A stretch of 64,000 nt of DNA, taken from Candidatus Omnitrophota bacterium (lineage in GTDB: Bacteria > Omnitrophota > Omnitrophia > Omnitrophales > JACROU01). The notes below the pieces were generated by a model. The model saw only the letters and a list, made by a program, of their open reading frames with translations, ran no database searches and had not been told where the DNA came from. Made by a program: the position numbers and the translations under genes. Position 1 is the stretch's first letter, and each line of letters opens with the position of its first letter. Location of the stretch: the NCBI GenBank assembly GCA_029261035.1, contig JAJDCD010000012.1, positions 6,958 through 70,957 on the forward strand. Direction: 5' to 3'. Below, in pieces: positions 1 to 41,690 of this stretch.

Positions 1-2
1 AG

Positions 3-8479: not shown

Positions 8480-8569
8480 AGGGTATATAGTAGCAGATTT
8501 TTGAGTATTAGAAAATCATGTTTCAATTCTGTTTTAAGCGTCATATAATAAGGTTCAAAGGAGAAATAA

Positions 8570-10016: not shown

Positions 10017-10038
10017 TCCATAAGATAATTTCTCGAGT

Positions 10039-10671: not shown

Positions 10672-10943
10672 AGAAGAAGAGAATTCATATTATTGTTTCG
10701 GGTCTTGTTCAGGGCGTTTTTTTTAGAGCTTCTACTTTGGATAAAGCTCGAAATTTAATAGTGGTAGGTTGGGTTCGGAATTTGCCAGATGGTACCGTTG
10801 AGATAAATGCAGAAGGCGAGGATGGGAAGCTTAGCCAGCTTTTAGACTGGGCTAGGAAGGGGCCGGTAGGGGCACGTGTTGATCATATTGATTATTTTTG
10901 GGATGATTATAGAGGTGAGTTTGAAAGCTTCTTTGTTAGATAA
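10668..10943 (+). CDS. acyP: acylphosphatase
   Basis: 91 aa. VSGLVQGVFFRASTLDKARNLIVVGWVRNLPDGTVEINAEG matches the acylphosphatase signature V-x-G-x-V-Q-G-V-x-F-R. Confidence 0.85.
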   Translation: MKKKRIHIIVSGLVQGVFFRASTLDKARNLIVVGWVRNLPDGTVEINAEGEDGKLSQLLDWARKGPVGARVDHIDYFWDDYRGEFESFFVR

Positions 10944-10958
10944 TTATAGGACTTAAAT

Positions 10959-23057: not shown

Positions 23058-23072
23058 TCTTTATCACCTGTT

Positions 23073-24053
23073 TTAAGGAAGCTTTAAAAGAATCGTACTT
23101 CCTAACAATATTTCCAAAATCAAAAGCAGAATCGCTGGCCACAATAAATAAGGAAAGAGCTCGTTATAATTTGCATACTCCTTAACCTTAACTTCTGTTT
23201 TTTCTAATTCATCAATCTTTTTATAGATCTGTTCTAAACTACGCTCATCTCTTGCTCTAAAAAAAACTCCTCCTGTCATATCTGCTATTTGTTTTAACAT
23301 CTTTTCATCAATATCTACTTTTGCTTGAACATAACGTCTTCCGAAAAGAGGATCGTCCACAGGAAAAGGAACAAGACCTCCCCTGCCAATTCCAATAGTA
23401 TATATTTTAATGCCAAAACCTTTGGCTAGCTCAGCCGCCGTAACGGGATCAATGTTTCCAGAATTATTTTCACCGTCGGTAATTAATATGACAACCTTAC
23501 TTTTAGCATCGCTTTCCCTCAATCTATTGATTGCATTAGCTATAGAAAGGCCCACAGCTGTGCCATCTTTGATCATCCCAATCTTAACTTCGTCCATTAA
23601 AGAAACTAAAACATCATAATCTAATGTTAAAGGACATTGAGTGTAGCTTTGCCTTGCAAAAACAACTAAACCAATACGGTCATTCTTCCTTCCTTTTACA
23701 AATTTCTTAGCTTCTTCCTTTGCTACATAAAGACGGTTTTCAGGGGCAAAATCTTCAGCCTGCATTGAACCCGAAACATCCAGAGCTATAACAATATCAA
23801 TACCTTTTGTACTTAATTCTTTTTCACTTTCAATGGCCTGAGGACGAGATAAAGCGAGCACAATTAAAATCAACGTAATTATCCTCAACATCGAAAGAGC
23901 TCTTATAGGGTTCTGAGAACCGGCAATTTTAATCTTCTTGATCTCATTCAGAGTCGGAAACCTCAAACTACTACTTTTCTTTCGTATCGAAATAAAGTAC
24001 AAGAAAGGCAAAACGATTAAAAATATTAAAAATAAAGGCGATTCAAAATGCAT
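23073..24053 (-). CDS. BatA-like VWA-domain membrane protein
   Basis: Two N-terminal TM helices. MIDAS DIVIALDVSGSM. ILITDGENNSG. C-terminal TM helix. Confidence 0.85.
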   Translation of the reverse strand: MHFESPLFLIFLIVLPFLYFISIRKKSSSLRFPTLNEIKKIKIAGSQNPIRALSMLRIITLILIVLALSRPQAIESEKELSTKGIDIVIALDVSGSMQAEDFAPENRLYVAKEEAKKFVKGRKNDRIGLVVFARQSYTQCPLTLDYDVLVSLMDEVKIGMIKDGTAVGLSIANAINRLRESDAKSKVVILITDGENNSGNIDPVTAAELAKGFGIKIYTIGIGRGGLVPFPVDDPLFGRRYVQAKVDIDEKMLKQIADMTGGVFFRARDERSLEQIYKKIDELEKTEVKVKEYANYNELFPYLLWPAILLLILEILLGSTILLKLP

Positions 24054-25036
24054 TATCCAATCTCCTTTTCATTAATAACTTTCATTTTTTCTTCCCCATC
24101 TTTTTCTAAAGGCTCAGCTTCTCTCTCATATGTGTTTTCAATGATTTTCCAGGCCATCTTAAAGTCTTTTTGTATTTCTTCTGTTTGAGGGGTGTGTTTT
24201 GCGTATTTAACCATTTCCAAGGAATTAAAATATTCCATAATTAAACGGACATCTTCCTCAGATAAATTTAATCTCTTTATAGATTTAAATATTTCTAATT
24301 TCGTTTCCTCGATAGCATTAAATTTATATCTTTTTGAGAGGTACAATTTAATCACTTCGGATAAACCATAGTAGTAAGCCTTATGTTCTCCTCTAACCAA
24401 CATCCCACTATCTTTTATTCGATTGAGTGACTGAAAGGCTGCTTCATGAATCTTTAAAGGGGGTGTCTTAAAACGATCTAGAAGGTGAGGGTTTTTCCTT
24501 AAGAAAAAGAAAAGAAATATAAGGAAGAGAAAAAAAACAGCTCCGAAAATTATAAAAAAGAACTTCCAAAATTGAGAAGGTATTTCTGTAACCCCTTTAA
24601 TCCCTCGTATATCCTTCTTAACGGCACCCTTTTTATCAATGGAATGTACCGTGATATATAGTTTATTTGTTTTAATCTCTTTTTCTTTTCCGTCAATATC
24701 CTTAAAGCGAAGAGTTATTGGATCGATTACGTATTCACCCAACGTATAACTTGTTATTTCATAAGTTTTACCTTCAATGACCTGAGCTCCTTCTTTTCGA
24801 GGGGTAATATCAAGGGAAGACTTTATTTCAAAATTTTTTAACTTTTTTTGATCTAAAGAACTTAAAATCTCAATTTGCGGGTTTCTTTTAATTTCAATTC
24901 GATATTCTACTTTATCTCCTACGGTAATAAATGCTTTATTCACCGAAGCTTTAACAGAAATATCACCCACATCTTGAGAGTAAATTAATGGAGTCATTAG
25001 GGAAAACAATATTAAAAATAAAATCGACCGTCTCAA
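24053..25036 (-). CDS. BatD-like membrane protein (signal peptide, beta-rich ectodomain, TM helix, helical tail)
   Basis: Architecture only: signal peptide MRRSILFLILFSLMTPLIYSQ, a TM helix FFFIIFGAVFFLFLIFLFFFL, then a basic stretch. It lies inside the Bat-type operon. Confidence 0.5.
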   Translation of the reverse strand: MRRSILFLILFSLMTPLIYSQDVGDISVKASVNKAFITVGDKVEYRIEIKRNPQIEILSSLDQKKLKNFEIKSSLDITPRKEGAQVIEGKTYEITSYTLGEYVIDPITLRFKDIDGKEKEIKTNKLYITVHSIDKKGAVKKDIRGIKGVTEIPSQFWKFFFIIFGAVFFLFLIFLFFFLRKNPHLLDRFKTPPLKIHEAAFQSLNRIKDSGMLVRGEHKAYYYGLSEVIKLYLSKRYKFNAIEETKLEIFKSIKRLNLSEEDVRLIMEYFNSLEMVKYAKHTPQTEEIQKDFKMAWKIIENTYEREAEPLEKDGEEKMKVINEKEIG

Positions 25037-25074
25037 ATTATATCCTCTTCCTCATATAAGCTAACTCTAACAAT

Positions 25075-25959
25075 CTACTGCCTTCTTTTGCGAGCGTCTC
25101 TTTCTTTGAAAAATTTCATCAATGGATCTACATAAGATTCAGTAATATCTATTTCTATCTTATCCAATCCCGTCTTCTTAAATAGCTCGTCTATTTGGTC
25201 TAGATTTGCTTGAGTTTTCATGCAAAATTGTTTTTGAAATTTTTTACTTTGTGTATTTACAATTACCTCATCCCCTGTCTCCAAATCCTCTAATGCGAGA
25301 TAACCTATCTTAGGAATATCTCTTTCTCTTGGATCAAAAAGATGGACCCCAATAATGTCATGCTCTTTCCCTAAAATTTTTAGAGGCTTTTCGTAGTTTG
25401 AGTCTATGAAATCTGAAATTAAAAAGATAACTGCTTTTCGGGTTAGCACCTTATGCATGTATTCCAACACCATAGAAAGATCGGTTTTGTTATACTTAGG
25501 TTCATATGAGAGAATTTCTCGGACTACACGCAAAGCATGTTTTCGACCCTTCTTAATAGGAATGTATTTCTCAACTTGATCTGTAAAAAATATAAGTCCC
25601 ACTTTGTCGTTATTCTTCACAGCTGAAAAAGCGAGAAGCGCTGTGATCTCTGCTGCTATTTCAGATTTAAGCTTTTCACCCGAACCAAAAAAACAAGAGT
25701 ATGAAGCGTCAACAACAAAAAAAACAGTAAGTTCCCGTTCTTCAACAAACTGTTTTATATAAGCAGTTTCACTTCGCGCTGTTACATTCCAATCAATAGA
25801 ACGGATATCATCGCCAGGGACATATTCTCTAACGTCTGAGAATTCAATCCCCTGCCCCTTAAAAACAGACTCATATTCTCCTCCAAACAAATCATTAACT
25901 AAACGATTTGTTTTTATTTCAATGAGTTTTACTTTGCTTAATAGTTCTTTTGGTAACAA
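25075..25959 (-). CDS. DUF58-family protein (MoxR-associated)
   Basis: Motif DDIRSIDWNVTARS and a VWA-like core FFVVDASYS. It lies downstream of the MoxR ATPase, as in Bat operons. Confidence 0.85.
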   Translation of the reverse strand: MLPKELLSKVKLIEIKTNRLVNDLFGGEYESVFKGQGIEFSDVREYVPGDDIRSIDWNVTARSETAYIKQFVEERELTVFFVVDASYSCFFGSGEKLKSEIAAEITALLAFSAVKNNDKVGLIFFTDQVEKYIPIKKGRKHALRVVREILSYEPKYNKTDLSMVLEYMHKVLTRKAVIFLISDFIDSNYEKPLKILGKEHDIIGVHLFDPRERDIPKIGYLALEDLETGDEVIVNTQSKKFQKQFCMKTQANLDQIDELFKKTGLDKIEIDITESYVDPLMKFFKERDARKRRQ

Positions 25960-26074
25960 TTTAAGCTCCTTAAGGGACTGTCACTCATCTCCATTCAAAA
26001 TTTTAGCAATTAAGTTCTTAAAGTAAATTAATTTATATTTTGCATCTTCACTTTTTTGGCCCTGCCCTTTACCT

Positions 26075-26211
26075 AGGGGACACGCACTTTTGCCACAATT
26101 GCTGTCGCAATGGTTACAAAAGTCCATGTCCCCAACTTCGAGCTGTGCTAATTTGGGGACATGGATTTTTGATACTGTTGCTTGCAACTGTGTCAAAAAT
26201 GCGTGTCCCCT
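26075..26211. repeat. 137-nt nested inverted repeat (long imperfect hairpin) in the MoxR-DUF58 gap
   Basis: The outer arms AGGGGACACGCA (26075-26086) and TGCGTGTCCCCT (26200-26211) are perfect. The inner arms TCCATGTCCCCAA (26123-26135) and TTGGGGACATGGA (26153-26165) are perfect. The segments between them are largely complementary. Confidence 0.8.
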
Positions 26212-26231
26212 TCCTCAATATTAACCTTCTA

Positions 26232-27233
26232 CTACGGAACTTCTATTTGGTCGAATATTTTCTTAACAATATCTTCGGAAGTCATGTCTTCAGCTTCCGC
26301 CTCATACGTAATTAGGATACGGTGTCTTAGCACGTCCAATCCAATTTGCTTCACGTCTTCAGGTGTAACATAAGCTCTTCCTTTTAGAAAAGCATGAGCC
26401 TTTGAAGCTTTCGTTAACATAATACTTGCCCGAGGAGACCCTCCAACTGAGATTAAATTCTTTAATTCTTCCAATTTATATAATTCTGGATTACGCGTAG
26501 CAAAAACAATATCCAGAATATAATCTTTTATTTTTTCATCGATATAAATATCATTAACCAAACCTCTTAATCGAAGAATGTCTTTAGGATTAATCACTGC
26601 ATTTACATCAATTTCATCGCTTTTAGTAACTTTTTCAAGAATTAATTTTTCTTCTCTTTTATTGGGATAAGTAACGTTAAGTTTAAGCATAAATCGATCT
26701 ACTTGAGCTTCAGGTAGCGGATAGGTCCCCTCTTGCTCAATTGGATTTTGAGTTGCCAAAACTAAAAAAGGTTCTTCAAGCTTATATGTATTTTCACCAA
26801 TAGTAACTTGTCTTTCTTGCATCGCTTCCAGCAAAGCACTTTGCACTTTTGATGGAGCACGGTTAATTTCGTCAGCCAGAATGATATTGGAAAAAATAGG
26901 TCCCTTTTTAGTCGTAAAATTACCGTCTTTTGGGTTATAGACAAGAGTACCAATTAAATCTGCCGGCAAAAGATCTGGCGTAAACTGAATTCTTTGAAAT
27001 TTAGTGTCGATGGCTTGAGCCAAGGTATGAACAGATTTTGTTTTAGCAAGGCCCGGAAGACCTTCAATCAACACATGACCATTTGCCAAGATGCTGATAA
27101 GAAGTCTTTCTATCAGATACTCCTGCCCCACAATCACTTTATGAATCTCAGTGATGAGAGCTTCCACCAATTTGTGTTCATTTTTTACTTTTTCTGTAAT
27201 TTCTTTTATTACTGCTTCCATGACTACCTCCAT
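26232..27233 (-). CDS. MoxR-family AAA+ ATPase
   Basis: Walker A GLPGLAKT, Walker B and sensor region ILADEINRAPSKVQSALLEAMQERQVT, and ATQNPIEQEGTYPLPEAQVDRF. Confidence 0.92.
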   Translation of the reverse strand: MEVVMEAVIKEITEKVKNEHKLVEALITEIHKVIVGQEYLIERLLISILANGHVLIEGLPGLAKTKSVHTLAQAIDTKFQRIQFTPDLLPADLIGTLVYNPKDGNFTTKKGPIFSNIILADEINRAPSKVQSALLEAMQERQVTIGENTYKLEEPFLVLATQNPIEQEGTYPLPEAQVDRFMLKLNVTYPNKREEKLILEKVTKSDEIDVNAVINPKDILRLRGLVNDIYIDEKIKDYILDIVFATRNPELYKLEELKNLISVGGSPRASIMLTKASKAHAFLKGRAYVTPEDVKQIGLDVLRHRILITYEAEAEDMTSEDIVKKIFDQIEVP

Positions 27234-27264
27234 ATTCTATAGTTATTACGAATGAAAATTCATT

Positions 27265-28164
27265 TTAGTTTCTTGGTTCAAACTCACCTTTGGGTTCGTT
27301 AACCAGTTTTGATTCAAAAAATCGTTCTGACAATCTTTTAACTTCAGTGCTTTGTGCATATGTTAATTTAGTTTGAGAGTACTTACAGGATTCTAATTTT
27401 AATATTATTTCTAATAAAATATTTTTATCTTCGTCTGTCAAAGATTCACAGGACTGTATGTTGTTTTCATCCAAAACAATTAACTGATAGGTGTCACTCA
27501 GATATTTACTTATTTTTTTGGACAACAATTCCATAAACTCTGAAAATTGTCCATCTTCAAGCAAGCTACCCAATCTATTAATTTCATTTAAAACCTCTTG
27601 CTCTATACTAGGTTTTGAATCTTCAATTATCTTCTTCTTTTTTTTCTGTTCTTTAATAAAAAAAACGAGCATCAAAAGAAAAACCACAATTCCAGCAGAG
27701 GTTATCCATTTCCAAGGAATAACTAAGGGTGGTTTTCTAATAGATACATTTTGACCTGGGACTTCAATTTGACTCATAGAGCTCTTCCCCGTCTCTATGT
27801 ATTGAATAGGAAAGGAAGGAATAGTCACTTTGCCAGCTCTTGCTGCAATAAGTGTGAAATTAAAAATTCTTCTTTGAATTAACCAACCATTTTCAGTTTG
27901 AGCAGATTCAGACGATACCCCTGTGTTTTCAATTGTAAAACCTTCTATTTCTAATACGGGTGGAATAAATTTGACCTGATCTTCATTTCCTAACCATTCG
28001 ATGGAAACCTCTAAAATAGCCTTAGAACCAATAGTTGGCTCTTCGTCTTGAAACGTTATACTCTTATTAATGGTTAAGGATATAGGAGAATCTTCTTGAG
28101 CATATAAAGCATTGGCGGGTAATACAAAAAGGACAAGAACTGTAAAAATATAAATCCATTTCAT
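27265..28164 (-). CDS. BatD-like membrane protein (first gene of the Bat-type operon)
   Basis: Signal peptide MKWIYIFTVLVLFVLPANALYA, a beta-rich ectodomain, a TM helix AGIVVFLLMLVFFI followed by KEQKKKKK, and a helical tail. The architecture matches 24053-25036. Confidence 0.5.
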   Translation of the reverse strand: MKWIYIFTVLVLFVLPANALYAQEDSPISLTINKSITFQDEEPTIGSKAILEVSIEWLGNEDQVKFIPPVLEIEGFTIENTGVSSESAQTENGWLIQRRIFNFTLIAARAGKVTIPSFPIQYIETGKSSMSQIEVPGQNVSIRKPPLVIPWKWITSAGIVVFLLMLVFFIKEQKKKKKIIEDSKPSIEQEVLNEINRLGSLLEDGQFSEFMELLSKKISKYLSDTYQLIVLDENNIQSCESLTDEDKNILLEIILKLESCKYSQTKLTYAQSTEVKRLSERFFESKLVNEPKGEFEPRN

Positions 28165-28482: not shown

Positions 28483-31400
28483 TTAGGCAGCTGCTTGAAT
28501 GGCTTTCCAAGCATTGATGTCAGCAAGTAATGTATCCCAAAGAGCGGCTCCACCTGCTAATTCAATACCGGTATATATCTTGGTATCAAATTGCTTACGA
28601 CTGAAGTCCAGAAGTTTCTTAGCAAGCAAGGTAGCTGTTAAGTTGTGTTGTGTTGTATCGCCAGAAGAGACTTTAGCTAATAACAGTCCTCTTTGAGCCG
28701 TTACATCTCCAACAACCTCTTCAACACCCACAAGACCTGTCGGAACTTTCTGCAATTTAATTGTTTCATTTAGACTACGATCGAGATTCTCTGGAGCAGA
28801 AACAATCACTAAGTTATCTGGATAGAGACCATATTCAGCAATAGCCAGATCTCGAACCTCCGTTTTTAAGGCTGCTATTCGTTCAGCATTACCAGAAAAC
28901 CACAAGGTCAACTTTAATGCTTTATCCATACCTGCAAGCAAGACAAGTTCTTGTAAATCAGTAGCCACTGTCTTGTCTGTCACTTCTCTATGCACAAACA
29001 AGGCTCGTGATGTACTTGTATTTGCATCTGGAAGTACATTAAAGATTCGCCCCAATTCCTGAGTTGCCGTTGGTGTTAAGCGAATAACATCCGCACTCAA
29101 GATCGTATTATCTGCGATTTGAGCCAACTCAGCTGGAAGAGCAATATCGAAAGAAGTTAATACTTGTTCTTGAAGTTCTCTTCCGTACTCTTCTAAGACC
29201 AATGGTAGAGTTAAATCTCTTGGTCCTGTAAAAATTGTTTTAAACTCAGGAGTAACAAAGCTTGCAACCTGAGCTCCTAAACTTTTTGCTGCTGTTTGAG
29301 CTTCAACAATTACTCTTGTTTTATCGAGTACCTTAGAAGCATTCTCGATTATAGCTTCAGTTGCTATTGGTGTAACCACTTCAAGAGGTGAACTATTTTG
29401 TCTTATAGATTCCCCCACAAGAAAACCAACACGTTCACCTATGGATTCAACAATACTTGGCATATCTAATCCAAGTATCGTCGTAAATACACCAGAAACA
29501 CCACCCCCATTAATAACGTAGTCTACAGCCCACAGAATACCTGTGTCGAATAATTGCGCAGATAATTGACGTGCTTTATTAGCAACAAATTGTTCATTTG
29601 CAGCACCTGCAACAATTTTAATTCCAGCTTCACTCAATCTTGCAATAGTATCCTGATCCAAAATATATTTAATTGCTGTTGGACTAAATACAGATGCCGG
29701 AACATCATAAATCTGATCTGATTTTGCAAGCAAAGCAACACTTCCATTCTCAAGACTACCAAAATTAAATGTTGAAACATCTGGAATTGTAGGAACGTTG
29801 GAATAAGTTTCTTTGACAATAGCATGTTGACTATCAAGTTCACTCATAACGACAATAGCTCCCTCTTCTATCAAAGCTTTAACTAAAGGAGTTCCAACAC
29901 CACCCTGTCCGCCTTGAACAGCTATTATTTTACCTTCAAGAGTTACATCTTCACCAAATACTTTTTGAATAGAAGCCTTAATCCCATTAAAAACACCTCT
30001 TGCTGTCCAAGGAGATGCATTATCACCCCCAAGAGCAAGATCTTTGTGCCCTACAACGTGACTTGGGGAAGTTTCCCCTATCGTCAACAATAAGGGTAAT
30101 GGTGTATTCATGTCTTGTCCCACAAATGTCACTGGTATATTCTCTAAAACTCTACCAAGACTGAGATATGCATCTCTTAATTTTCCTCTTTCAACCTGAG
30201 AAAGGTTCTCAATTTTTTTATTTGGATCAAGACCATCTACCTGAATCATTGTCTTTGACCCGCCTAAAGGTAATAAATCGAGACCAATCATGGCATTCTT
30301 ACTTGTCATAGCTCGAGATAAAGTCAAAGCTGAAATCATTTGAGCTTCTCTAGAATCCCATTTTAATCGGCGAACACCTCCAATAGCACCAGACATCAAC
30401 CATTGTTCTGTTCCATATTTCTTATAAGGAAGTAAATGATGTAAACCAATAATAGCTGTATAACCAACACTCTCATTTCTAGCAATAACAAGTCCCACAT
30501 GACCTTCCCAAACATCACTTACATGAGAAGGTAAACTAGAAGGATCTGTTATTCTGGTTACCTTTGTTCCATCATTTAATGTCAGACCTTCTTCAGGAAT
30601 CAAATTCTCAACCCATTGACGTCCTAGTATTTGCATTTCCTTGAATGCTCCATCCCCCAAAGAATTTGCTATAGCAGATTCTAATTTAGATTGTTCATCA
30701 ATAATAAACGAAGGAACATTTTTAAGCTTTCCTAGAAAATCTCTTCTACCAGAAACTTCTTGTTCCCAATAACCAGAATCAACTGTAGTTGTAATGCTTA
30801 AAAGATCTGATGGATCAATATCCACCCCATCAAAATGAACACTCCCCTTTTTAGGGACAAGACCAACAGAAGTTTCAGTATAGTTATCAGCTCCACTAGC
30901 TCTCTCTAACGCCCAAAGAATAACTCGAAAGTTTTCCATAAACCCAGGCCAAATATAACTACCATCTTCGTTTTGTCTAAACCAATTAACATGAAAGAAA
31001 GCTGGAGCTTGCTCTCCAAGAGAACCAATCACTCTTAATTTATTTTCCATATCTGCTGCTTCTGTTTGAGAAAAGAAAGGACGATTTGCAAAAGGATCTC
31101 TTTTCATAACACCTTCTTCTCCAGCTGCTGCTGCTGTACCCATAACACCCATAACAGCACCATCATAGATACCTGATTCTATCGTAGGAAGCTGACGTAC
31201 TAAAAGTTCTCCTTCAGGAATACGACCACCCCAGAAGATTGCGCTAATACGAACACCCTTAGGATCTCTCCAGTGTTCTGACATGATTTCATCTTGAACA
31301 CGTTCTGCAGATGCTGCATAGCGTGCATTTGGATGAGCCCATTCTCTTGGCTCTAGCTTTTTGGACACTTTATTCTTTTGAAGTCGTTCTCCAGAAGACC

Positions 31401-34400
31401 AGTCAGCAATCTTTTCTCCGGTCCAATCTTCCCAACCTTCTAGATCTGGAGTTCCAACTTTAAGGGTTTCAGACCCTTCTATATATGTTTCTTCTCCAAA
31501 TGCCCATGCTTTGTAATGAGCTTTACTTTTAAATCCTGGAGGGAATTTGGTTTTATCTGTCCACCATACTTCATTTGTAATTGTGTTAATTGCAACATTG
31601 GTAAATATTGTCCCCGTGTTTGGACCAATGGCTACCATTGCTTTTGGTGTTTGCTCCGCATTCGTACCTTTTGCAACACCAAAATAACCATTCTCAGCAT
31701 TGGTTGCATAAAGCCCTTCACCTTCACGAGCACGTGCGAAAATAATGTCATCACTGACAACACGAACTTCGTACTTACCTTTAAGAGCATCTGGAACTTC
31801 GATCATAGCAAAATTCGTTTTCCCAGAAGCACTTGGCGCTGCATATGCTACATAATCAAGTTTTCCTGTTTCAAGATTCTTGATTTCAACCACAGCCATA
31901 TGCTCTGCTAACCAACCTTCTTTAATTGCACTCCAAGTTGCATAACGAAGTGCATGAAACTTTTTGTTTAATAGAGCATTCCCACCATAATTAGAGCCGT
32001 AAGACATAATCAACATTTCATCAGGAAAAATACCGTAATTCCTTAAATCGACACCATCTTCAGCTTCTTCAATAAACTCTTTTCTAGCATCGCCTTCAAG
32101 ACCCAACTCATTCGCTTCTTGTGTTGCTTTCTCATTCGCTTCTGCAATAAGAGAGTATATTTTATCTATATCACCAGGTTCATGAACACCACGAACAAAT
32201 TTTTCTTCATCACCTAGTTCTGCCAGAGCTACATTACCTACCTTAGCAAGTCTGAACATATTTAAAGCCACATATCGACTTGATGTTACCTGAACACCCA
32301 CCTGAGAAAGGTCAGAGCCAGCAGTTCCCATTAGATATGGAAGAACATACATTGTTTTGCCAGCCATAGAACCTTTTAACAGACCTTCCATAACTTCTTT
32401 CTTTTCTGCTGTTGGACTCCAGTTGTTATAGTGCCCTGCATCCTCTGGGTTTTCTGTTGCGACAAACGTCTTTTTAACAGAACGCGCCGTATCTTTTTTA
32501 TGAGAACGTGTGTAATAGTTACCATCTGCGAGTTTTGTTAATTCTCCTGCGGCAACAGCTTGCTCAAGTAAAGCAGCGTCATCTGATTCGTCTACAATCT
32601 GAATATCCGCAGCCCCTGTAAACTCAACCATTTCACGAATCCAGCTTTGCAACGCAACATTAGATAAAGTTGAAATCTTATCTTCAATTGCTGCACCTAA
32701 ACTAGAAGCTTCTGTTGTTGTTTGAGTCCAATCGTATACGCTCAAAGGAAAAGTATCATAAACAAAGTCATGAGCCTCCAAAGCTTTCTGAGCTAAAGTC
32801 AATCGACTTATATTTTGAATTGTTGCTTTTTCTGATACTTTCGCTTTGGCATTACTAAGTTTTTTAGTAACATTTTCACGAGAATCAAAAATTGCATCCA
32901 ACAAAGCATCTCTCTCAGAAGCATTCGATTCAATTACAGCTAGCAGCACACGCGAACCATAAGTAATCCATTCATCGTGAGTCAATTTTCTTTTTAATAT
33001 TTCCATAATGACAGGAGATTTGCTTTTATCAAAAGCCCCACCTGGATTATCATTAAAGTATTCAGTTACCGTCAAATCTCTTTCTTGTAACATTTCAAGA
33101 ATAAGTTCTTTAGTAACTTTTTCGCCATTTTTAACTTCTCTACCATCATGAAGAATTTGTCCACCTTCATCCAACTCGATACCATGAATTTCTAACAACT
33201 TAACCCAATGCCAGAAAATTTCATAAGTAGCAAAGTCGTTCATTAAACGTTTACCTGTAAATACGTGTTTACCCGCATCATTGGTAAGACGTTCTTTTTC
33301 CGTTTTATAATCATCAACAGCGGCTGCATTATTTCCATTCAACTGTTGGAACCCATACTCTGAAGCCATAAAAATTGCATAACGAATTCCATCTAGTGTT
33401 ACTTTACCAGTTGGAGTTGTGAATATTTTCGCATAAGCTTCTTCAGAGAATAACTCATCTAAATCTTTTTGAGTAACGATATAAGGAGTAATTCCTCCTG
33501 CATCAGAAACAAGTCCTAAGTTAATGAATTTTTGTCTTTCTTCTACAGATAAACCATCTACTAAAGCTTGCAAGTCTTCTCTAGTTGCTTGTAACGGTTT
33601 AGCGCCTGCCTCTACATATTTCGTGGATACAGTAGCAACCCAACTTTGACGATAGGCATCAAACTCAACTCCATCTATAACAAGAAGACCTGTTAATCGT
33701 TCACGGAGTTTATCTAAAAACATTGCTTGAACAGCACCGTCATTAGTAGCTTTCTTAGCCGCAGCAATCTCTTCCGTGTCTGTTGCTTTAATTGGAGTTT
33801 CCATTACAGCAGACATTCCACCGATCGGCATACCATTCTCCAGAGCACCCGTTTCACGATTTCCTGTTACTAGTACTGTAATTAAAGCATTCCTACGCGT
33901 GTATTCCGTCATAGAGGCTTCTGTCATACCAACGCTATTAGGATCAGGAAATACTTTTGAAGGGTCATCTTTAACCATCTCAAAACGCCCATTAATATAA
34001 TCCCAACGACCTACATTAGGTCCAATTAAGTTTTCTCTTAAAATCCAAAGAATTACTTCTTGCTGAGCAGCATAAGTCCCTCTTTCATTCAACATTTCTA
34101 TTTTTATAGAACCCCTTTCAAGACCTAGAGTTTCTTCAAATCGCTTAAGAATCTTAGAAATAATCAAAGCTTCTTCAGGAGATTCAATTTTAGGGACATA
34201 AAAGTAAACATTACTCTCATTTTCTTTTTGAGCATCATAGTTATTCAATAAATGGATTGTAAATGCTGCAATCGTCGCAGGAATATTTCTACCATCTAAA
34301 GTAATTTGTCTGTTTTTTAGATGAAGCCCAGGAACACGATGAAAAATGGTTGGCCATTGATCACGATCCACTTTGATACTATATTCTTTAGGTTCACCTT

Positions 34401-37400
34401 CTTTATTTTTCTTTGTAGGATGTTTGAACGCACGTCCTATCCAGGTACCCGATATCACTTCCTTAATATAAGTCCATGCTTGATAGAGTTTTTGTTGATA
34501 GTCATTACCCGCGTCCTCCCAGTCAAACATCCAAGACACAGCGCCTTTTAACCCTGCGTTAATAGCTCCCATCAACATACCCATATCATCGGCTGGCCCC
34601 GTTCCTTGCAGACCGGCTTTTAGAACTTCTGCTGGGACTGGCACTGTTGAGTTCATAACCCAACGATACTGAGAGTCTTTATTTATTAAACCTTCACGAA
34701 TTTGTTCAACCGTTAAAGTGTTTCCATCCGCGTCGGTCAATTCTTTTGAAGGGTCCGCAAAACCATAACCTTCACCCGAATCTCGTCGAGCTTTTCTAGC
34801 GTGTAGTTGCTTTCCAATTTCTAAACCAAATTCACGCGTCAACGATTCAATCGTTCCTTCTACATTTACCGTTCTGCCATTTACTTCTTTATCACCGAAA
34901 AGACCTGAAAAATCTTCAGCCAAATCTTCGCGAACTACAAGCCCTTCTGTTGTGGTATTTACATCAACATCAGATTTAGCAGAAAGATTAAATTGATTAG
35001 ATGTATCAACATCATTACCTTTTTCTCTTGAAGAGGCTGTTCCATTTGCTATTCTGTTAATAGATGCTAATTGAGCACCTCTCACTTCAGCACCTGCAGA
35101 ATTTTGATGTCTATTGGTGAAAGGAGATCCTATTTTCTGACCCACCTGCTGAACCATAGACACAAATGCATAAGCACCCACTTTAACTAATTCTCTCATT
35201 ACTCGATAAACGTTTAAATGAGCAACATGATCTTGAAAAATGGTTACGAATTGGAATGCAAAACCTTGCTTACCCATATCCGTACTAAAAGTTCTTAAAG
35301 CATCAACCATCGCCTGAACATCTTCAGGGTTGTCACCCCATGTATCCGGTTGACCCCAATCAAAATCTTTTGATTGCATTGCTTTTTTAATATTAGCTCT
35401 TTGCTCTAAGCTCAAAGCAGCATGCCAGTTATCAGGGTTATTCCAGTTAAAAGATGGAGATAAATTCACTGCCTTAAGTGGTTTAAAACCTAACTCTGGA
35501 TCATTGTCTACAATATCAGCAAACGCTTTTGCATTTTTTAAATCGGGTTCTTTTTGTTCCATCCACAAAATATCTGCTGCACGAGCTGCCATTCTCAAAC
35601 GGATCCCTGCATTTGTAACACCCAACGAGTTATCAATTTGAAAAAAACCTTCACTTGTTTGAGCTAACGTGTGATCCCAATAAATTTCAATATTAAAACT
35701 ATTTATTGCTAACTCTCTTAAATCCTGAAAATCCAAAGTAATCTCTAAAGGATTAGTAGCTTCGTTCCATGCCTCGACTTCACCGCTACGGCCAGCTTCC
35801 ACCAAAGCTCTTTCAACAGCTTGAGGATAAGTCATAACATCTGCTTCTTGAGCCCAAACATTAGTCAACCTAGAAGATGCCGCAACCTCCTCTTCCCAGC
35901 CGGAGACTTCCGCATCTAAGACTTCTTGAATTGTCCACTCTTTACCAGAAGCATCAACAACAACGTTATTTAAACGCACTCTAAAGTTCGGATCTTCTAG
36001 CTCAATAGCAAGTCTATTCGACCAAAGTTCATCCACATAAACAGGGTTTCCACCATACTTTGGAGTCAAACTTTCATTATGCTCTAAAAGCCTCTCTTTT
36101 TCTTCTCCTCTAATATTCCAAACCTCTCTAATAGAAGCCGCAATTTTGGGAAAATTAGCTTCGATTTCCGAAAGCCTAACTTCAGGGTCAACACCTCTGT
36201 TATATTCTTTTTTATGAGATAAACGAATCACATCTTTTAAAGAAGGTATTCCTTCAACTGTAGCACCTTTAATAAAGTAATGATCTTCAGCTGAATTATC
36301 ATCTTCAAGTAACTTTGCTCCTTCAGCATCACTGCGTGCAATAATTACCAAAGTTGAGCTTCGACGAATGGCTTCATAACGAATATCCCATAGACGCTTC
36401 ATAAACTCACCTAAAGAAGTCAACACTTTACCAGCCATATGACCACATTTTTTTTGTCCATGTGCTTGGTCTTCAATATGAATCGATGCTGATTTTGCAG
36501 CAATAAACAAAGAAGCTAATTGAGTCGGAGATTTATGAGCAGTATCTCCATCAGCGTAAATAGGAATTAATGCATTTAATAAAACATCATTCAAATTTTC
36601 AAGAACTCCAGCCACTGCTTTCTCTCTATTTGCCTTTAAGTTGTCACTAGAAAAGCCTACATAATTTTCTCGATTACTAATTAATTCAGAAATAAAGCCA
36701 TCCCCTAATTCTGTAGCAAAGTTTTCAAAATCTTCTCTAACTTCTATTGTAAATATATACTGTCTTGCTCTAACAGAATCGACAAACGAGCGAATCAATG
36801 CTGGCTTCATTTGCTCTAAAGATGCTTTGTTAGGAGCCCTTCTTAATATTTGGAATAAATTGGGAAAGAACTTTTTAGTTAGATCTCTAGACAAAGTTCT
36901 GAATTGATATTGTAAGTTTTTGTCCAAGTTAACTAAACCCGTGTAAATTTCTTTAACTTCATTTGGAACACTATCCAATTGGTACTGAGCTAAATCTGGC
37001 TCCCCCATATGATGCGATGTTTGCCAACCACTTAAATACAAAGCTTCTGCCCCTGCCTCAACAGCTGCTTTAGCTGTTACAGAATCCATCACACCACCGG
37101 TCGCTGCAAAAGTACCTTGCTCCGCATGCTTCATAACAAGATAATACAAAGAATCTGCTAATGCATTAGCTGTTTCTGGCACATCTAAAACGCTCCCTGC
37201 CAATCTGTGAAACTCTTCAGCAGTCCATTTCTTATCCTCTCTCATAAATTTAGCAATTCGACTAAATCGATCTTGAGCTAAGAATTTTTTAAAATGTGCT
37301 ACTGTGGGTTCAATTCTTTTAGCCTCTGGCAAAGCACCCAAACTATTGGCAGATACATTAACCACTTCATTAAAAACTGGAAATTCCGCCAACAGATCCT

Positions 37401-39195
37401 GCCCCTCAACAGAAAGTTGAATTCCAACTCTGTTATTCCAGGAAGAAAATTGTTTTCCCCAAGGACTTTCGTTAAGCGTAGTCTGAAGCCCTAAAATATC
37501 CCCAGCTTCTATAACTCCGCTACCAACCAAAGCTCTTCTAGCAGAAATGATGAATTCAGGAGCAACACCACCAAAGTAATCAACACCTAAAGCAACCAAT
37601 GCTTCTACAGAAGTTCCTCCAAAGAAAGGTGTTTCAATTGTTGAGTCCTTTAAACCATGGCTACTTGTCTTAAGGAATGAATGAACGTAAGTTTCTTGCC
37701 CTTCAACAGAATCAATTTGAGGAGCAATTAAAGAATAGTTCGATTTGTCTTCATAATAATTCTTAAAAGATTCAGAGTGAAACCCCCCTGTAATAATGGC
37801 TACATTCTTAGCTCTTCTAGATTCAATTAAAGAAGTAGCTTTATCAAACATACCTGAATCACGCTGAATAGCACCTTCGTAAAATTGCACCGATTTCCCG
37901 AATAGAGCTTTCACTTCTTCTAAATTCTCAATTTGTGTTTTCTTGACACGAGACAATGTATTGATTTCATGAATAATTCGACTAGGGTCTAAAGTGTTTC
38001 CTTTAGACTTCAATGCCTTATAGTCTTTTGGTGTTAACTGTAGCTCAAATAACCGGCTCAATAGTTCAAAGTTTAAAATCAGTTCCAACACCCTCTTCTG
38101 TTCTTTAGACTCTGTTAATTTATCTAAGATCTGAGCATTTAACTTCTCAGATTCATTAAACAACCTATCTCCAACCAACTCATTTTTCAAAAGAAAGTTT
38201 CCAACAAAAAATGAAACATTAGGATATACATCAAAATTAAAATTTGCTGGCAATTTCCTAACCACAGATTCCATCAACAGCGCAAGAGCACCCTCAGCAT
38301 CAGAATCAACAGAGTTAAAAAATGCTTTCAACTGTTTGTGCTCTTTAGCAGAAACAGTTTTGCGTGCAAGTTTTAAAAAAGCATTTTTTTCTTTGTGAAA
38401 CTGTTCTAAATTAAATTGATCTTGAAACTTTTGGAGTTTAAAAACTCTAAAAAGCATTGGCCAATCCAATTGCTGACCCGGTTGATCAAAATCAATATTT
38501 AAGATTTGATTCGCTTGTTTTTTTAAATTTTCTAATCTCTGAATAAATGTGATTTTCTTCTGGTCAAAGTCTTTTTTGTTTTTTAAACTAAGTCGAATAT
38601 CTGCATTCAACAAAGAAGACTTGAGGCCTTCTACCTTAGCTTTTATATTGGATAAAAACAAACTCGTCTTCTCTCTTTGAGATAATACAGCTACAAAGTC
38701 TTTTGAGTTACTCATATAAGATGCTTCATCTTCTATACCATAAGCTTTAACTTTAGGATTATTCATTAAGAATAATTCTGCTCCCTTAAGATAAGCTTTG
38801 CGAGTTAAATCATCTGCAATTTGTGCGTTGATTTTTTTATCACGAACAAACTGAAGCAGTTCAGGTTCTAACTCCGAAACGGAGCCTTCTAAAAGAAGTA
38901 AGTCTATTTTTTTGTTTTGATTTAAATAATTAAGAATGGATTCTATATTTTTTTGGGCTTGATAATTACCATGAGCTGTTTGAATATGAAATACATTTGT
39001 TTCATGTATTTTGGGTGTTTGATGCTGAATAACACCAAGCTCACGAGGTAATGTAAAATTTGAATTGTTAAGTGATACGGATGAAACTGTATTTAATTGC
39101 GTTAAACCTTGCGAATATCCAGTCCCTGAGAAAATAAAAGTTAATGCAACGAACAAGTTTATTGCCTTTAATCTAGCGAAGTAATTAAGAAACAT
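28483..39195 (-). CDS. giant multi-enzyme fusion protein: leader + TraB/GumN-like domain + isocitrate lyase + malate synthase + GTP-PEP carboxykinase + ELFV-type dehydrogenase + unknown C-terminal domain
   Basis: Uninterrupted 3,570-codon ORF in an AT-rich genome. AAGGAG lies 9 nt upstream of the ATG (39193-39195). Hallmark motifs of four enzyme families occur in series (see the domain entries). Confidence 0.9.
   Translation of the reverse strand: [3570 protein letters not shown]
28486..29274 (-). other. domain (aa ~3308-3570): C-terminal region of unknown function
   Basis: About 260 aa of non-low-complexity sequence after the dehydrogenase module. I recognised no motif. Confidence 0.5.
29311..30618 (-). 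other. domain (aa ~2860-3295): Glu/Leu/Phe/Val-dehydrogenase-like NAD(P) oxidoreductase
   Basis: [21 protein letters not shown] (Lys2981), [16 protein letters not shown], Rossmann motif [12 protein letters not shown] (aa 3090-3101), VAGAANEQ and [10 protein letters not shown]. The classical ELFV signature is only partly matched. Confidence 0.7.
30691..32667 (-). other. domain (aa ~2177-2835): GTP-dependent phosphoenolpyruvate carboxykinase
   Basis: [47 protein letters not shown], P-loop APSASGKTN (Lys2459), [20 protein letters not shown], and [25 protein letters not shown] (aa 2734-2758). Confidence 0.9.
32971..34878 (-). other. domain (aa ~1440-2075): malate synthase (A-type-like)
   Basis: FDWEDAG (aa 1557-1563), [32 protein letters not shown] (aa 1725-1733), and [13 protein letters not shown], where Asp1987 sits at the position of the catalytic base. 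Confidence 0.85.
35011..37278 (-). other. domain (aa ~640-1395): isocitrate lyase, long form with insertions
   Basis: YLSGWQ (aa 720-725), IYADGDTAH, the ICL signature KKCGHMAGK (aa 915-923, nt 36427-36453), [38 protein letters not shown] and [10 protein letters not shown] (aa 1362-1371). Confidence 0.9.
37711..39018 (-). other. domain (aa ~60-495): TraB/GumN/ChaN (Tiki-superfamily)-like, tentative
   Basis: [37 protein letters not shown] (TAH aa 73-75, Glu103) resembles the GTxH...E motif of this superfamily. [33 protein letters not shown]...YSLIAP (GGFH aa 470-473) resembles its C-terminal R-[ND]-x2-[MW]...VGxxH motif. This rests on pattern recall only. Confidence 0.35.
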
Positions 39196-39689
39196 ATGAT
39201 GAATCTCCTTTTCGAGGATTATTTTTTTGAAAGCAAAACAAGTTTGCTAGGGTATTTCTTTTGCTAAATTTAAATACATGTTTTGAAAGAACAAAACGAT
39301 AATTACGTTTTCCGCAATCCGTTGATTTTTTTCGAATTCATCCGTGAAGAGAGATCAAAATATAATAGAATTTCAGATAAAAGTCAATTTAATGTTGAAT
39401 GAAAAGAAAAAAAAATAATTAAAAAAGTAGTGTTAAAAACATTTAAGAATTTACTTTTCGATTCATTTCTCTCTTATTTTGAATATTGCTAAATTATTTA
39501 CATTAAAAAAATACTTATTAAATTTATTTATAATATTATTTATTAAGCTGATTTTAAAATACTTACATCATCCCCTATTATTTATAAGGAAGAAGTTCAA
39601 TAATTGATTGTAAAAATAGCATATCTATCATGAATATTAATTATAATAATAGAGGTAATTCAATATAGGATATATTTCTTAGGCAGGAA

Positions 39690-39726
39690 TAAAAAAATAA
39701 GGGAGCAGTGCAATAACCGCTCCCTT
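39690..39726 (-). terminator. Rho-independent terminator of dnaK
   Basis: The minus strand reads AAGGGAGC-GGTTATTGCACT-GCTCCCTT followed by ATTTTTTTT. It starts 21 nt after the dnaK stop. Confidence 0.8.
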
Positions 39727-39746
39727 ACCTTAAGCATTACTTAATA

Positions 39747-41690
39747 CTATTTAGTTTCTTTATCTTTGTCTTTATCTTCGTCAACAACTTCGAAATCAGC
39801 ATCAACAACATCTTCTTTTTTTTCTTCTGGTTGTTCTTTGCTATCACCTGTTGCTTCCTGATTTTTAGCAGCTTCTTCTTGCTGTTTTTTAGCGGCTTCT
39901 TCATACATTCTCTGAGCCAACCCTTGAGAAGCTTGCCCTAACTTTTCAGAAGCTTTATCTAAAGTTTCTTTGTCTTCAGTTTTCAAAGCTTCTTTAGCTT
40001 TCTTAATGGCATCTTCAATACTCTTTTTCTCTTCGTCCGTTGCTTTGTCTCCACTTTCTTTCAAGGTTTTTTCAACAGAATAAACAAGAGTATCCAAGTT
40101 GTTACGTGATTGAATCAGTTCATGCTTTTTCTTATCTTCTTCTGCATGAGCTTCCGCTTCTTTCACTAGCTTTTCAACATCATCTTTAGACATTCCAGCA
40201 GAAGACTCAATACGAATTTTTTGTTCTTTTCCAGTAGCTAAATCTTTAGCGTGAACATGAACAATACCATTCGCATCAATATCAAACGTAACTTCGATCT
40301 GAGGAACACCTCTAGGAGCTGCTGGAACACCTACAAGATCAAACCGGCCTAGCGTTCTGTTATCCGTAGAGATTTCTCTTTCTCCTTGAAGAACATGAAT
40401 GCTTACAGCTGTTTGATTATCTGCAGCTGTAGAAAAAATTTCTGATTTTCTGATAGGAATAGTGCTATTTCTATCAATTAAGCGAGTCATAACACCCCCT
40501 AAGGTTTCAATACCCAAAGACAAAGGTGTAACATCCAACAAAAGAACGTCTTTAACGTCCCCTTGAAGAACTCCTGCTTGAATTGCAGCACCGATAGCAA
40601 CCACTTCATCCGGATTCACCCCTTGGTGAGGATCTTTTCCAAACAATTTTTTTACTCTTTCTTGAACAGCAGGCATACGACTTTGTCCGCCTACCAAAAT
40701 TACTTCATCAATCTCAGAGGCACTAAACCCTGAGTCTTTTAATGCTTTTTCACAAGGCGAAATAGAACGATCTACTAAATCACTTACTAATTGCTCTAAC
40801 TTTGAACGTGTAAGCGTCATTACTAAATGCTTTGGCCCAGATGCATCGGCTGTAATGAATGGAAGATTAATTTCTGTTTCCATAGAGGTTGAAAGTTCAC
40901 ACTTTGCTTTTTCAGAAGCTTCTTTTAAACGTTGAAGAGCTGTTTTGTCTTTAGACAAATCCACACCTTCTTGTTTTTTGAATTCTTCCATAATATGTTC
41001 TGTTACTGCATGGTCAAAGTCATCTCCACCTAGATGAGTATCTCCATTAGTTGCTTTTACTTCAAAAACCCCATCTCCAATTTCTAAAATAGAGATATCA
41101 AAAGTACCTCCGCCTAAATCGTAAACAGCAATTTTCTCATCCTTCTTCTTATCTAAACCATAAGCAAGAGAAGCCGCTGTTGGCTCATTAATAATACGAA
41201 GTACTTCTAAGCCAGCAATTTGCCCAGCATCTTTAGTTGCCTGTCTTTGACTGTCATTAAAATAAGCAGGAACAGTAATAACAGCTTGAGTAACAGGCTC
41301 ACCTAAATAAGCTTCTGCATCTTGTTTTATTTTTTGAAGTATGATGGCTGAAATTTCTTGAGGCGTTTGATCTTTACCATTAGCTTCAATAAGCACATCC
41401 GAATTTTTTCCTTCTTTTACTTTAAAAGGAACAAGCTCAGCTTCCCTACCAATTTCATTGAAATTTCTTCCAATAAATCTTTTGGCGCTAAAAATAGTAT
41501 TTTCAGAATTGGTTACCCCTTGTCTTTTTGCGGGCAAACCAACAAGTCTTTCCCCAGCTTTTGTAAAAGCAACAATAGAGGGCGTTGTTCTATTACCTTC
41601 TTTATTTGCAATAACCTTTGGTTCTCCACCTTCCATGATTGCAAAACATGAATTCGTTGTTCCTAAATCGATTCCGATAACTTTTCCCAT
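39747..41690 (-). CDS. dnaK: molecular chaperone DnaK (Hsp70)
   Basis: [28 protein letters not shown], and an acidic C-terminal tail. 647 aa. AAGGAG RBS. Confidence 0.98.

Follow-up and report, generated by a model that had tools for sequence, protein, structure and literature searches.

A divergent leucine/phenylalanine/tryptophan dehydrogenase-type module in a multi-enzyme glyoxylate-shunt protein of an Omnitrophota bacterium

The window analysed here, a stretch of 64,000 nucleotides (64 kb) from Candidatus Omnitrophota bacterium (assembly GCA_029261035.1, contig JAJDCD010000012.1), encodes a protein of 3570 amino acids (aa) in which several distinct enzyme families tile one open reading frame (ORF): isocitrate lyase (ICL), malate synthase (MS), phosphoenolpyruvate carboxykinase (PEPCK) and a module of the Glu/Leu/Phe/Val dehydrogenase (ELFV) superfamily, followed by a C-terminal domain, or tail (Table 1; nucleotide positions without a locus name are those of the window). 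The ELFV module is a member of the small branch of its superfamily that comprises leucine, phenylalanine and tryptophan dehydrogenases (LeuDH, PheDH and TrpDH). Judging from the residues it keeps, it probably carries out amino-acid-dehydrogenase-type chemistry, and it is very unlikely to be a stand-in for malate dehydrogenase (MDH). We favour a two-part explanation, an amino-acid-dehydrogenase cassette at the glyoxylate/glycine node together with a non-catalytic tail, to which we give, as a whole, slightly less than an even chance.

Family and fold of the dehydrogenase module

An earlier, sequence-only reading of the window had assigned aa ~2860-3295 to the ELFV dehydrogenases from the order of their motifs, and this assignment is borne out by Pfam, by phmmer searches of the Protein Data Bank (PDB) and by an AlphaFold2 (AF2) model searched with Foldseek. 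The motifs on which it was based all lie where they were reported: GGVRRLKW (2939-2946), LPLGGSKTM (2975-2983) with Lys2981, VGQDMNT (3025-3031), ASPWTARGV (3060-3068), the dinucleotide-fold segment IIAVQGGQGGVG (3090-3101) with its glycine-rich loop at 3094-3101, VAGAANEQ (3195-3202) and VDYVINGGGV (3224-3233). The signature around the catalytic Lys is, as had been pointed out, only partly kept. The PROSITE-type signature reads [LIV]-x2-G-G-[SAG]-K-x-[GV]-x3-[DNST]-[PL]; in LPLGGSKTMIQVDG Lys2981 is present, Met follows Lys-Thr at the [GV] position and Gly occupies the [PL] position.

The Pfam model PF00208 (ELFV_dehydrog) matches aa 3063-3234 with 38.5 bits (E = 1.4e-9, cutoff 23.4), and the N-terminal ELFV model PF02812 scores 16.9 bits, under its cutoff of 25.3. 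We consider the N-terminal domain to be present in a divergent form, because the LeuDH alignments run full-length from residue ~36 and the fold match covers this domain. LeuDH chains in the PDB were matched by phmmer at E = 1e-26 to 2e-23 (chain residues ~36-328), tryptophan dehydrogenase at 7e-21, and glutamate dehydrogenases (GDHs) at 6e-12 and weaker. The best NCBIfam model was Trp_DH_ScyB (NF035922; 106 bits, E = 1.8e-30, aa 2934-3252), a score far from the equivalog cutoff of 600 bits. The AF2 model, made from an alignment with 25 homologues, had a predicted local distance difference test score (pLDDT) of 84.3 and a predicted template-modelling (TM) score (pTM) of 0.86, and the pre-domain at aa ~2848-2894 was modelled as part of the ELFV domain (pLDDT ~90). 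LeuDH, TrpDH and PheDH topped the Foldseek list for the PDB (E ~1e-24 to 1e-20, target-normalised TM 0.74-0.89), with glutamate dehydrogenases lower at 1e-16 and weaker. Neither profile nor fold searches moved the module to an unrelated family.

With LeuDH (PDB 1LEH, 6ACF, 8HPE, 3VPX) the module shares the two-domain ELFV fold, the catalytic Lys, the second Lys, the Asp, and hydrophobic residues at the L40, V291 and V294 positions. It differs in that it is 26-28% identical, has an N-terminal pre-domain of ~50 aa that LeuDH lacks, as well as insertions of ~11 aa and ~20 aa, and is embedded in a chain of 3570 aa, whereas LeuDH is a free subunit of ~365 aa. ScyB/NpTrpDH (PDB 5B37) and PheDH (PDB 1C1D, 1BW9) are similarly close (Foldseek E 1e-20 to 1e-23, TM up to 0.89 for PheDH), but N262 of PheDH is Glu in the module and the scytonemin or aromatic-metabolism context is absent. 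On the structure searches we rejected a reading of the ELFV module and the tail together as a MaeB-like malic enzyme plus phosphotransacetylase (PTA); the MaeB-type hybrid malic enzyme (PDB 6ZN9) is an amino-acid-dehydrogenase-like enzyme with a C-terminal non-catalytic PTA-like domain.

Active site of the module

Residues were mapped by alignment with B. sphaericus LeuDH, in a sequence consistent with the phmmer alignments to PDB chains. Lys2966, Lys2981 and Asp3028 of the module are the equivalents of LeuDH K68, K80 and D115, and all three are kept. In LeuDH, D115 serves the substrate amino group, K68 and K80 the carboxylate, and K80 is in addition the general base; in PheDH, Asn262 is a further carboxylate ligand (PMC6033044). 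The K68, K80 and D115 equivalents are invariant in the window module and in the two relatives described below, despite mutual identities of 39-41%. Because K80 and D115 are invariant at ~40% identity, we argue that catalysis has been retained.

The module is less conventional around these residues. In alignment A1 (26 rows, 25 of them stand-alone relatives, a column being called conserved at 90% or more) it departs from the consensus at seven positions in or beside conserved active-site motifs. In LeuDH numbering, the usual G37-P38 is S-G, the K-T-V after the catalytic Lys is K-T-M, A113-E114 is G-Q, which turns the A-E-D triad into G-Q-D, the Cys of A-P-C-A is Thr, and N262, found in at least 90% of the rows, is Glu3201, with Glu in all three members of the fused subfamily. 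The carboxylate-binding Asn and the A-E-D triad that characterize the LeuDH/PheDH branch are therefore both missing.

The pocket positions are hydrophobic. I2938 stands at the position of LeuDH L40 and V3236 at that of V294; we take these positions to be K89 and S380 in glutamate dehydrogenase, which reportedly, in work of Baker et al. 1995, bind the distal carboxylate. Overall the pocket is LeuDH-like at K68, K80, D115 and the hydrophobic positions and altered at N262 and A113-E114. An acidic residue follows strand beta-2 (...VVMSE...), and by the usual Rossmann rule this suggests that the cofactor would be NAD rather than NADP.

A rare fused subfamily

The combination of GSKTM, G[QPV]DM, GAANEQ, two insertions and the ~50-aa pre-domain was found in only two relatives, L001 and P0045. 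The three modules are 39-41% identical to one another, and no other sequence exceeds ~35% identity to them; on the evidence of these alignments they form a distinct, constrained subfamily. In L001 (1-5627), from a metagenome-assembled genome labelled Planctomycetales, the whole 5.6-kb contig is one open frame that holds the ELFV module, two internal repeats of ~130 aa, a serine hydroxymethyltransferase (SHMT) domain (PF00464, E = 4e-109) and further unassigned sequence. P0045 (MBI4398216.1) is a contig-truncated Omnitrophica protein that reads ICL C-terminal tail, SLG, ELFV, SLG, tail domain. Its first 50 residues align with the tail of the ICL module of a sister protein, P0042, and show the HQ...G...QF pattern as in stand-alone ICL. 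The linker motifs SLG and RxExR, described below, do not occur in the L001 frame, and the sequence downstream of its ELFV module showed no similarity to the tail domain.

Searches for more members gave little. Among metagenomes, 80 loci matched the patterns, and all were stand-alone class enzymes of 350-400 aa; GG[GA]K[AS]V is present in each of them in which the lysine motif could be located, and AED and GAANNQ in the seven taken into an alignment. Aligned stand-alone database matches likewise carry GG[GA]K[AS]V, AED and GAANNQ. A scan of genomes for further subfamily members yielded L001 only, and word-indexed protein searches recovered no member, the query itself being missed as well. The exhaustive search of 1.84 billion representative proteins reported below had the tail, not the ELFV subfamily, as its query.

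The route from isocitrate to phosphoenolpyruvate

The sequence-only reading had remarked that the protein has no domain of the lactate dehydrogenase (LDH)/MDH family to link malate synthase to PEPCK, and had offered the ELFV module as one possible replacement. The remark was confirmed. Pfam and NCBIfam scans found no LDH/MDH (Ldh_1_N/Ldh_1_C), malic-enzyme or malate:quinone oxidoreductase (MQO) domain in the 3570 aa (E <= 0.01), and no member of these families among the 42 other window ORFs of at least 150 aa. These belong to ordinary housekeeping genes, among them pilMNOQ, dnaK, genes of the trp and his pathways, alaS, recA and smc.

The replacement idea itself was unsupported. It holds that the module was recruited as a 2-hydroxy/2-oxo-acid oxidoreductase for the step from malate to oxaloacetate, which would complete the isocitrate-to-PEP route within one polypeptide, and it draws on the absence of any LDH/MDH-family domain in the protein or the 64-kb window, on the sharing of a chain with MS and PEPCK and on the altered carboxylate and amine environment. 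The sister protein P0042 (3052 aa, with a near-identical copy of 3060 aa in several archives) speaks most directly to it. P0042 has a signal-peptide-like start, the same N-terminal domain (head), ICL, MS, PEPCK and tail, and in place of an ELFV module it has a linker of 117 aa, which was considered as a decayed ELFV module and rejected for want of homology. An AceK gene lies in front of its gene (L002), and behind it come the Bat/MoxR/VWA genes that are also found in the window. Because P0042 keeps the route, in an aceBAK-like setting, without ELFV, the isocitrate-to-PEP route can do without this module.

The remaining evidence points the same way. The ELFV module follows ICL in P0045 and accompanies SHMT in L001, with no MS or PEPCK in the available sequence of either; in the window protein it sits after PEPCK and not between MS and PEPCK. 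Lys2981 and Asp3028 of the deamination mechanism are conserved, the positions that would have to bind a C4 carboxylate hold no positively charged residue, and hydroxy-acid dehydrogenase activity is not known to us from any ELFV enzyme. We therefore regard recruitment for malate oxidation as highly improbable, an attractive story that is here corrected. On our reading the module does not replace malate dehydrogenase, and malate has to be oxidised in trans.

Candidate substrates

The alternative offered by the sequence-only reading, an amino-acid dehydrogenase that couples the pathway to nitrogen, fared better. Of the substrate pairs that it listed, glyoxylate/glycine gains context, and oxaloacetate/aspartate and 2-oxoglutarate/glutamate are disfavoured. 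We propose that aa ~2848-3302, with an SLG linker on both sides, make up an accessory enzyme cassette that would perform NAD-linked oxidative deamination or reductive amination. The general base would be Lys2981, with Asp3028 placed at the amino group and Lys2966 helping to bind the carboxylate; a neutral, non-dicarboxylic 2-oxo acid and its amino acid would form the substrate pair.

Glyoxylate and glycine are favoured as this pair because in P0045 the ELFV module comes straight after an ICL tail and in L001 it shares an open frame with SHMT. The reaction glyoxylate + NH4+ + NADH <-> glycine was chosen because glyoxylate and glycine link ICL, malate synthase and SHMT. It would give the ICL product a nitrogen-assimilating exit, parallel to malate synthase. 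If glyoxylate is the substrate, we would be dealing with a glycine dehydrogenase of the ELFV type that links C2 assimilation to nitrogen and one-carbon metabolism. As the physiological pair, glyoxylate/glycine is nevertheless a tentative assignment, and on balance a somewhat unlikely one.

Several findings weigh against this substrate or against the cassette reading as a whole. The fusion-based argument is weak, in that other members of the family combine unrelated enzymes. The assignment rests on three members, two of them contig-truncated. The pocket is not narrowed for glycine: A113 has become Gly, which makes it larger, and V291 and V294 are kept. The loop of the window copy, GGQGGVG (29893-29928, aa 3090-3101), is one residue longer than the GxGxxG/A/S of L001 and P0045, and the LeuDH loop is likewise one residue shorter than that of the module. 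Of the four substitutions by which LeuDH was converted into an amine dehydrogenase (PMC6033044), two lie at the positions of Glu3201 and the lost E114. Finally, the signal-peptide-like start and the lack of a transmembrane (TM) helix in the 3570-aa protein (Kyte-Doolittle scan, 19-residue window, threshold 1.6) mean that the chain may leave the cytoplasm, where chemistry with NADH and CoA would be odd.

Because the pocket is un-narrowed and the best NCBIfam model is tryptophan dehydrogenase, homology alone points to a hydrophobic amino acid. A dehydrogenase for hydrophobic or branched-chain amino acids (Leu/Ile/Val/Phe-like) would act on amino acids from prey or the environment, the carbon of which would pass through acetyl-CoA into the shunt and PEPCK; such a flow from amino acids to acetyl-CoA, the shunt and gluconeogenesis is metabolically coherent by established pathway knowledge. 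The nearest relatives in sequence and structure are LeuDH, PheDH and TrpDH, the pocket has retained its hydrophobic residues, and A113 is replaced by Gly as in PheDH-type enzymes. However, at seven positions in or beside the active-site motifs, N262E and E114Q among them, the subfamily departs from residues conserved at 90% or more in the alignment with 25 stand-alone relatives, the direct fusion to the ICL C-terminus or to SHMT is left unexplained, and no genes for a branched-chain 2-oxo-acid dehydrogenase were found within the 64 kb. We hold this reading to be unlikely.

A dehydrogenase of the aspartate or glutamate type, which would connect the tricarboxylic acid cycle and shunt node to nitrogen through oxaloacetate/Asp or 2-oxoglutarate/Glu, has in its favour membership of the ELFV superfamily and the fact that oxaloacetate is the PEPCK substrate. 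GDH matches, however, are weaker than the best ones (6e-12 vs 1e-26 with phmmer against the PDB, 1e-16 vs 1e-24 with Foldseek), the equivalents of what we take to be the distal carboxylate ligands K89 and S380 of GDH are Ile and Val, and the extra Glu in the site (E3201) would disfavour a dicarboxylate. We judge this possibility improbable.

Because of the Glu at the Asn position and the loss of E114, the substrate of the module may also not be a 2-oxo acid. The module could in that case be a native amine dehydrogenase acting on a ketone, aldehyde or amino alcohol, or a non-catalytic domain that senses NAD(H) or amino acids. The engineered amine dehydrogenase derived from LeuDH carries K68S/E114V/N261L/V291C (PMC6033044). 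In the fused subfamily two of these four positions are naturally altered (N262 to E, E114 to Q/P/V), and the glycine-rich loop of the window copy is unusual. On the other hand, K68 is kept in all three members, V291 is kept too, the replacement at 261/262 is acidic and not hydrophobic, K80 and D115 are invariant, and the fusion partners all handle carboxylic acids; we hold both versions of this reading to be quite unlikely. The natural replacement of the carboxylate-recognition residue of LeuDH and PheDH is of direct interest for reductive-amination biocatalysis.

The tail and head domains

The sequence-only reading had called the ~260 aa after the ELFV module an orphan domain. No described family was indeed matched, since aa 3308-3570 gave no Pfam, NCBIfam or PDB sequence match, but the domain is not an orphan. 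A phmmer search with aa 3296-3570 against 1.84 billion representative proteins returned 13 matches, namely P0041, which is the window protein itself (100%), and 12 others with E values from 3.7e-47 to 1.3e-5; a word-indexed search with the tail alignment gave none. None of the matches stops more than 52 residues short of the C-terminus of its protein, and most of them reach it. What precedes the tail varies widely: ICL-MS-PEPCK in P0042, the end of a malate synthase in P0043 (...MS, SLG, tail), the ICL tail and ELFV in P0045, a protein-kinase domain in P0050, a phosphomannomutase-like enzyme in P0052, and Methyltransf_28 with HATPase_c in P0053. P0051 has no recognisable enzyme and consists of the same head domain, two hydrophobic segments, a coiled coil and the tail. 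Those tail proteins that come with a source name are from Candidatus Omnitrophica/Omnitrophota (P0043, P0045 and P0050); P0052 is named only 'phosphomannomutase' by JGI.

All 13 tail proteins end in ...AA or ...SA, and the only invariant columns of the tail alignment are Ala, Gly, Gly and Ala. The AF2 model of the tail is confidently alpha/beta, and structure searches with it found no specific structural relative. The tail is probably a Rossmann-like, non-catalytic module common to the family, and its role presumably lies in how the chain as a whole is assembled, localised or processed rather than in catalysis.

The head of ~590 aa, which gave no match in Pfam, PDB phmmer or PDB profile searches, recurs behind a signal-peptide-like start in P0042, in P0051 and in the 1165-aa AceK protein of L002 (23-3520). 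A head profile scored 891 bits against the window protein, 893 against P0042 and 597 against the L002 AceK protein. Its conserved motifs are hHIQ(T/D)AHG, LEG and TGGFH, in which there may be a resemblance to TraB/TIKI-type proteases; the Pfam and PDB searches gave no such match.

Some further features of the tail proteins and their loci were seen. An (S/T)LG motif is also conserved within the tail of both clades, ~20 residues before the first strand (28486-29310; alignment A2), and in three of the 12 proteins that share the tail the chain closes with RSEIR(R/K)AA, which repeats their linker motif at the very C-terminus. The genome of P0051 (L085 1-2571, 10001-14935) has stand-alone genes for malate synthase and a 432-aa ICL 7-9 kb upstream, this ICL being 25-34% identical to the long ICL module of the giant protein. 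MBI3312946.1, annotated as a 'protein kinase' of 737 aa, forms only the 3' part of a frame that runs without a stop for at least 4070 codons (L087 2-12211), within which two minus-strand genes were called antisense (Pfam PIN_10/DUF5615 and DUF433).

Inter-module motifs and possible processing

The tripeptide SLG occurs eight times in the window protein, against 1.5 expected, and marks four of its five module boundaries: head/ICL (618), MS/PEPCK (2165), PEPCK/ELFV (2845) and ELFV/tail (3305). In the longer form [AG]-x-S-L-G it marks all five module junctions of P0042, both ends of the 117-aa linker included, and it is also found at both boundaries of P0045, at the MS/tail junction of P0043 and on both sides of AceK in L002. 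Among the loci of relatives, L002, L003 and L088 have [AG]-x-S-L-G at boundaries. The codons vary between sites, which places the constraint at the peptide level; SLG sites as DNA recombination sites were rejected for this clade on the same ground. We consider [AG]-x-S-L-G a candidate processing or docking site.

A sister clade has a different motif, R[AS]E[VAIL]R. It occurs at boundaries in P0053 (L004 2-7711; eight copies, 0.06 expected) and 14 times in the L087 frame (2-12211; fewer than 0.1 expected). Its codons are uniform, CGC-TCC-GAA-GTG-CGN or CGC-GCC-GAG-GTG-CGG, and 11 of the 14 copies in L087 encode the first Arg by CGC, a codon with a frequency of 0.20 in the ORF as a whole (P = 3e-6). 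This motif may be a peptide motif, a nucleic-acid element or a trace of recent duplication.

These motifs raise the possibility of a metabolic polyprotein, in which SLG and R[AS]E[VAIL]R would be proteolytic sites, the ELFV module would be freed as a protein of ~450 aa and the tail would act only before cleavage. As a proposal about the system it leaves the chemistry aside and can stand beside any of the enzyme readings above. SLG is enriched and stands at the module boundaries of the window protein, P0042, P0045 and the L002 AceK protein, its codons vary, the sites lie in low-pLDDT linkers, and R[AS]E[VAIL]R is repeated eightfold in P0053 and 14-fold in the L087 ORF. Passages of an earlier preprint propose cleavage of Omnitrophota giant proteins without giving cleavage points (West-Roberts et al. 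2023). Against these stand the facts that no protease domain was detected in the 3570-aa protein, that a linker might just as well be conserved for docking or for flexibility, and that the synonymous-codon bias of the sister clade hints at a nucleic-acid-level or duplication origin. We consider processing doubtful on present evidence.

A broader scheme can be drawn from the same elements. A signal peptide and head of ~590 aa would be followed by swappable cassettes, among them a glyoxylate-aminating ELFV, by SLG or RxExR processing sites and by the tail of ~260 aa, and the polyprotein would deliver a pathway block outside the cytoplasm or into a host or prey cell and be cut there into working enzymes. 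Bacteria would then have a metabolic polyprotein, and the giant proteins of the phylum would have cleavage sites that can be named. This head-cassette-tail organisation has so far been seen almost only in Omnitrophota-annotated sequences; the scheme as a whole is speculative and we think it quite unlikely to hold in full. The tail, the head and the inter-module motifs are testable handles on whether and where such giant chains are processed and how they are sorted.

Relation to known proteins

The ELFV module is a divergent enzyme of a known kind inside a protein of a recently noticed kind. In the passages of a 2026 preprint that bear on the subject, multi-enzyme 'metabolic cluster' giant proteins are one architectural class in Omnitrophota; the survey covers proteins of at least 10,000 aa, rich in phosphoglucomutase/phosphomannomutase (PGM/PMM), methyltransferase and HATPase domains and mostly with a predicted signal peptide and/or TM segments, and the same passages leave their biochemistry open (bioRxiv 10.64898/2026.06.07.730766). 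Proteolytic processing of such proteins was suggested, with cleavage points then unknown, in corresponding passages of West-Roberts et al. 2023 (10.1101/2023.11.21.568195). As far as these passages go, the window protein resembles the class in that enzyme families tile one chain, relatives of its tail carry PGM/PMM, methyltransferase and HATPase domains, and signal-peptide-like starts are common. It differs in length, 3570 aa against the 10,000 aa or more of the surveys. The ICL-MS-PEPCK-ELFV set, the shared head and tail and the inter-module motifs do not appear in those passages on Omnitrophota giant proteins.

Literature searches for an ICL-MS-PEPCK-ELFV fusion, bacterial polyproteins and the RxExR peptide gave nothing specific, and no paper on the head or tail domains or on the motifs was found in the literature searched; the head/linker/tail organisation may be new. 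Nematodes and Euglena have a bifunctional isocitrate lyase-malate synthase, a fusion of two enzymes. That protein is similar in having glyoxylate-shunt enzymes in one chain and different in being without PEPCK, ELFV, head, tail and linker motifs. The metazoan case has been described (PMC1630690).

Feature map and neighbouring genes

The features of the giant ORF are collected in Table 1. In the NCBIfam scan TIGR01346 scores 229 bits on the ICL module, under its equivalog cutoff, and malate_syn_A scores 128 bits on the MS module, far under its cutoff.

Table 1. Features of the multi-enzyme protein gene in the window.
Feature	Coordinates	Strand	Basis or remark
Multi-enzyme protein, single ORF	28483..39195	-	3570 aa, stop included; identical to P0041 of the representative library
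Signal-peptide-like N-terminus, aa 1-30, MFLNYFARLKAINLFVALTFIFSGTGYSQG	39106..39195	-	read from the sequence by eye
N-domain (head), aa 31-617	37345..39105	-	without Pfam or PDB match
Linker ANSLGAL, aa 616-622, N-domain/ICL boundary	37330..37350	-	motif scan
ICL module, aa ~640-1460	34816..37278	-	Pfam ICL, E = 4.9e-60; KKCGHM at 915-920
MS module, aa ~1480-2160	32716..34758	-	Pfam MS_TIM-barrel, E = 2.8e-32; divergent
Linker ASSLGAA, aa 2163-2169, MS/PEPCK boundary	32689..32709	-	motif scan
GTP-dependent PEPCK module, aa ~2170-2844	30664..32688	-	PRK04210, 523.9 bits vs cutoff 504; Pfam PEPCK_N and PEPCK_GTP
Linker ANSLGDG, aa 2843-2849, PEPCK/ELFV boundary	30649..30669	-	motif scan
Pre-domain of ELFV cassette, aa ~2848-2894	30514..30654	-	W..LIP.EG..L.DGTKVTRI.DP..LP; conserved in L001 and P0045 only
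ELFV core (LeuDH/PheDH/TrpDH-type), aa ~2895-3295	29311..30513	-	Pfam, NCBIfam, PDB, AF2, alignments
Codon of catalytic-type Lys2981	30253..30255	-	alignment to LeuDH K80
Codon of Glu3201 at the carboxylate-binding Asn position	29593..29595	-	equivalent of LeuDH N261/262 and PheDH N262
Linker AKSLGAQ, aa 3303-3309, ELFV/tail boundary	29269..29289	-	motif scan; low-pLDDT end of both AF2 models
C-terminal tail, aa 3310-3570, ending ...AIQAAA	28486..29268	-	alpha/beta core aa ~3395-3570 (28486-29013)

Three genomes share a set of genes that lies downstream of the glyoxylate-shunt megaprotein gene and on its strand, namely BatD-like, MoxR, DUF58, a protein of ~320 aa, BatA/VWA and VWA (window 20331-28164, minus strand; L002 13065-19672; L088 1410-7121), after gaps of 318, 92 and 89 nucleotides, respectively. 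This arrangement could reflect conserved synteny or a functional link.

The giant gene has a GC content of 0.37-0.40 per 2-kb bin, against 0.33-0.37 in its flanks. The exceptions are the bin 38001-40000, which covers the 5' end of the gene and an AT-rich upstream spacer, and a flank bin of 0.38 over a VWA-TPR gene.

GTP-dependent PEPCKs usually carry a reactive Cys in the kinase-1a loop (PSACGKTN). This loop reads PSASGKTN both in the window protein (aa 2454-2461; 31813-31836, minus strand) and in P0042.

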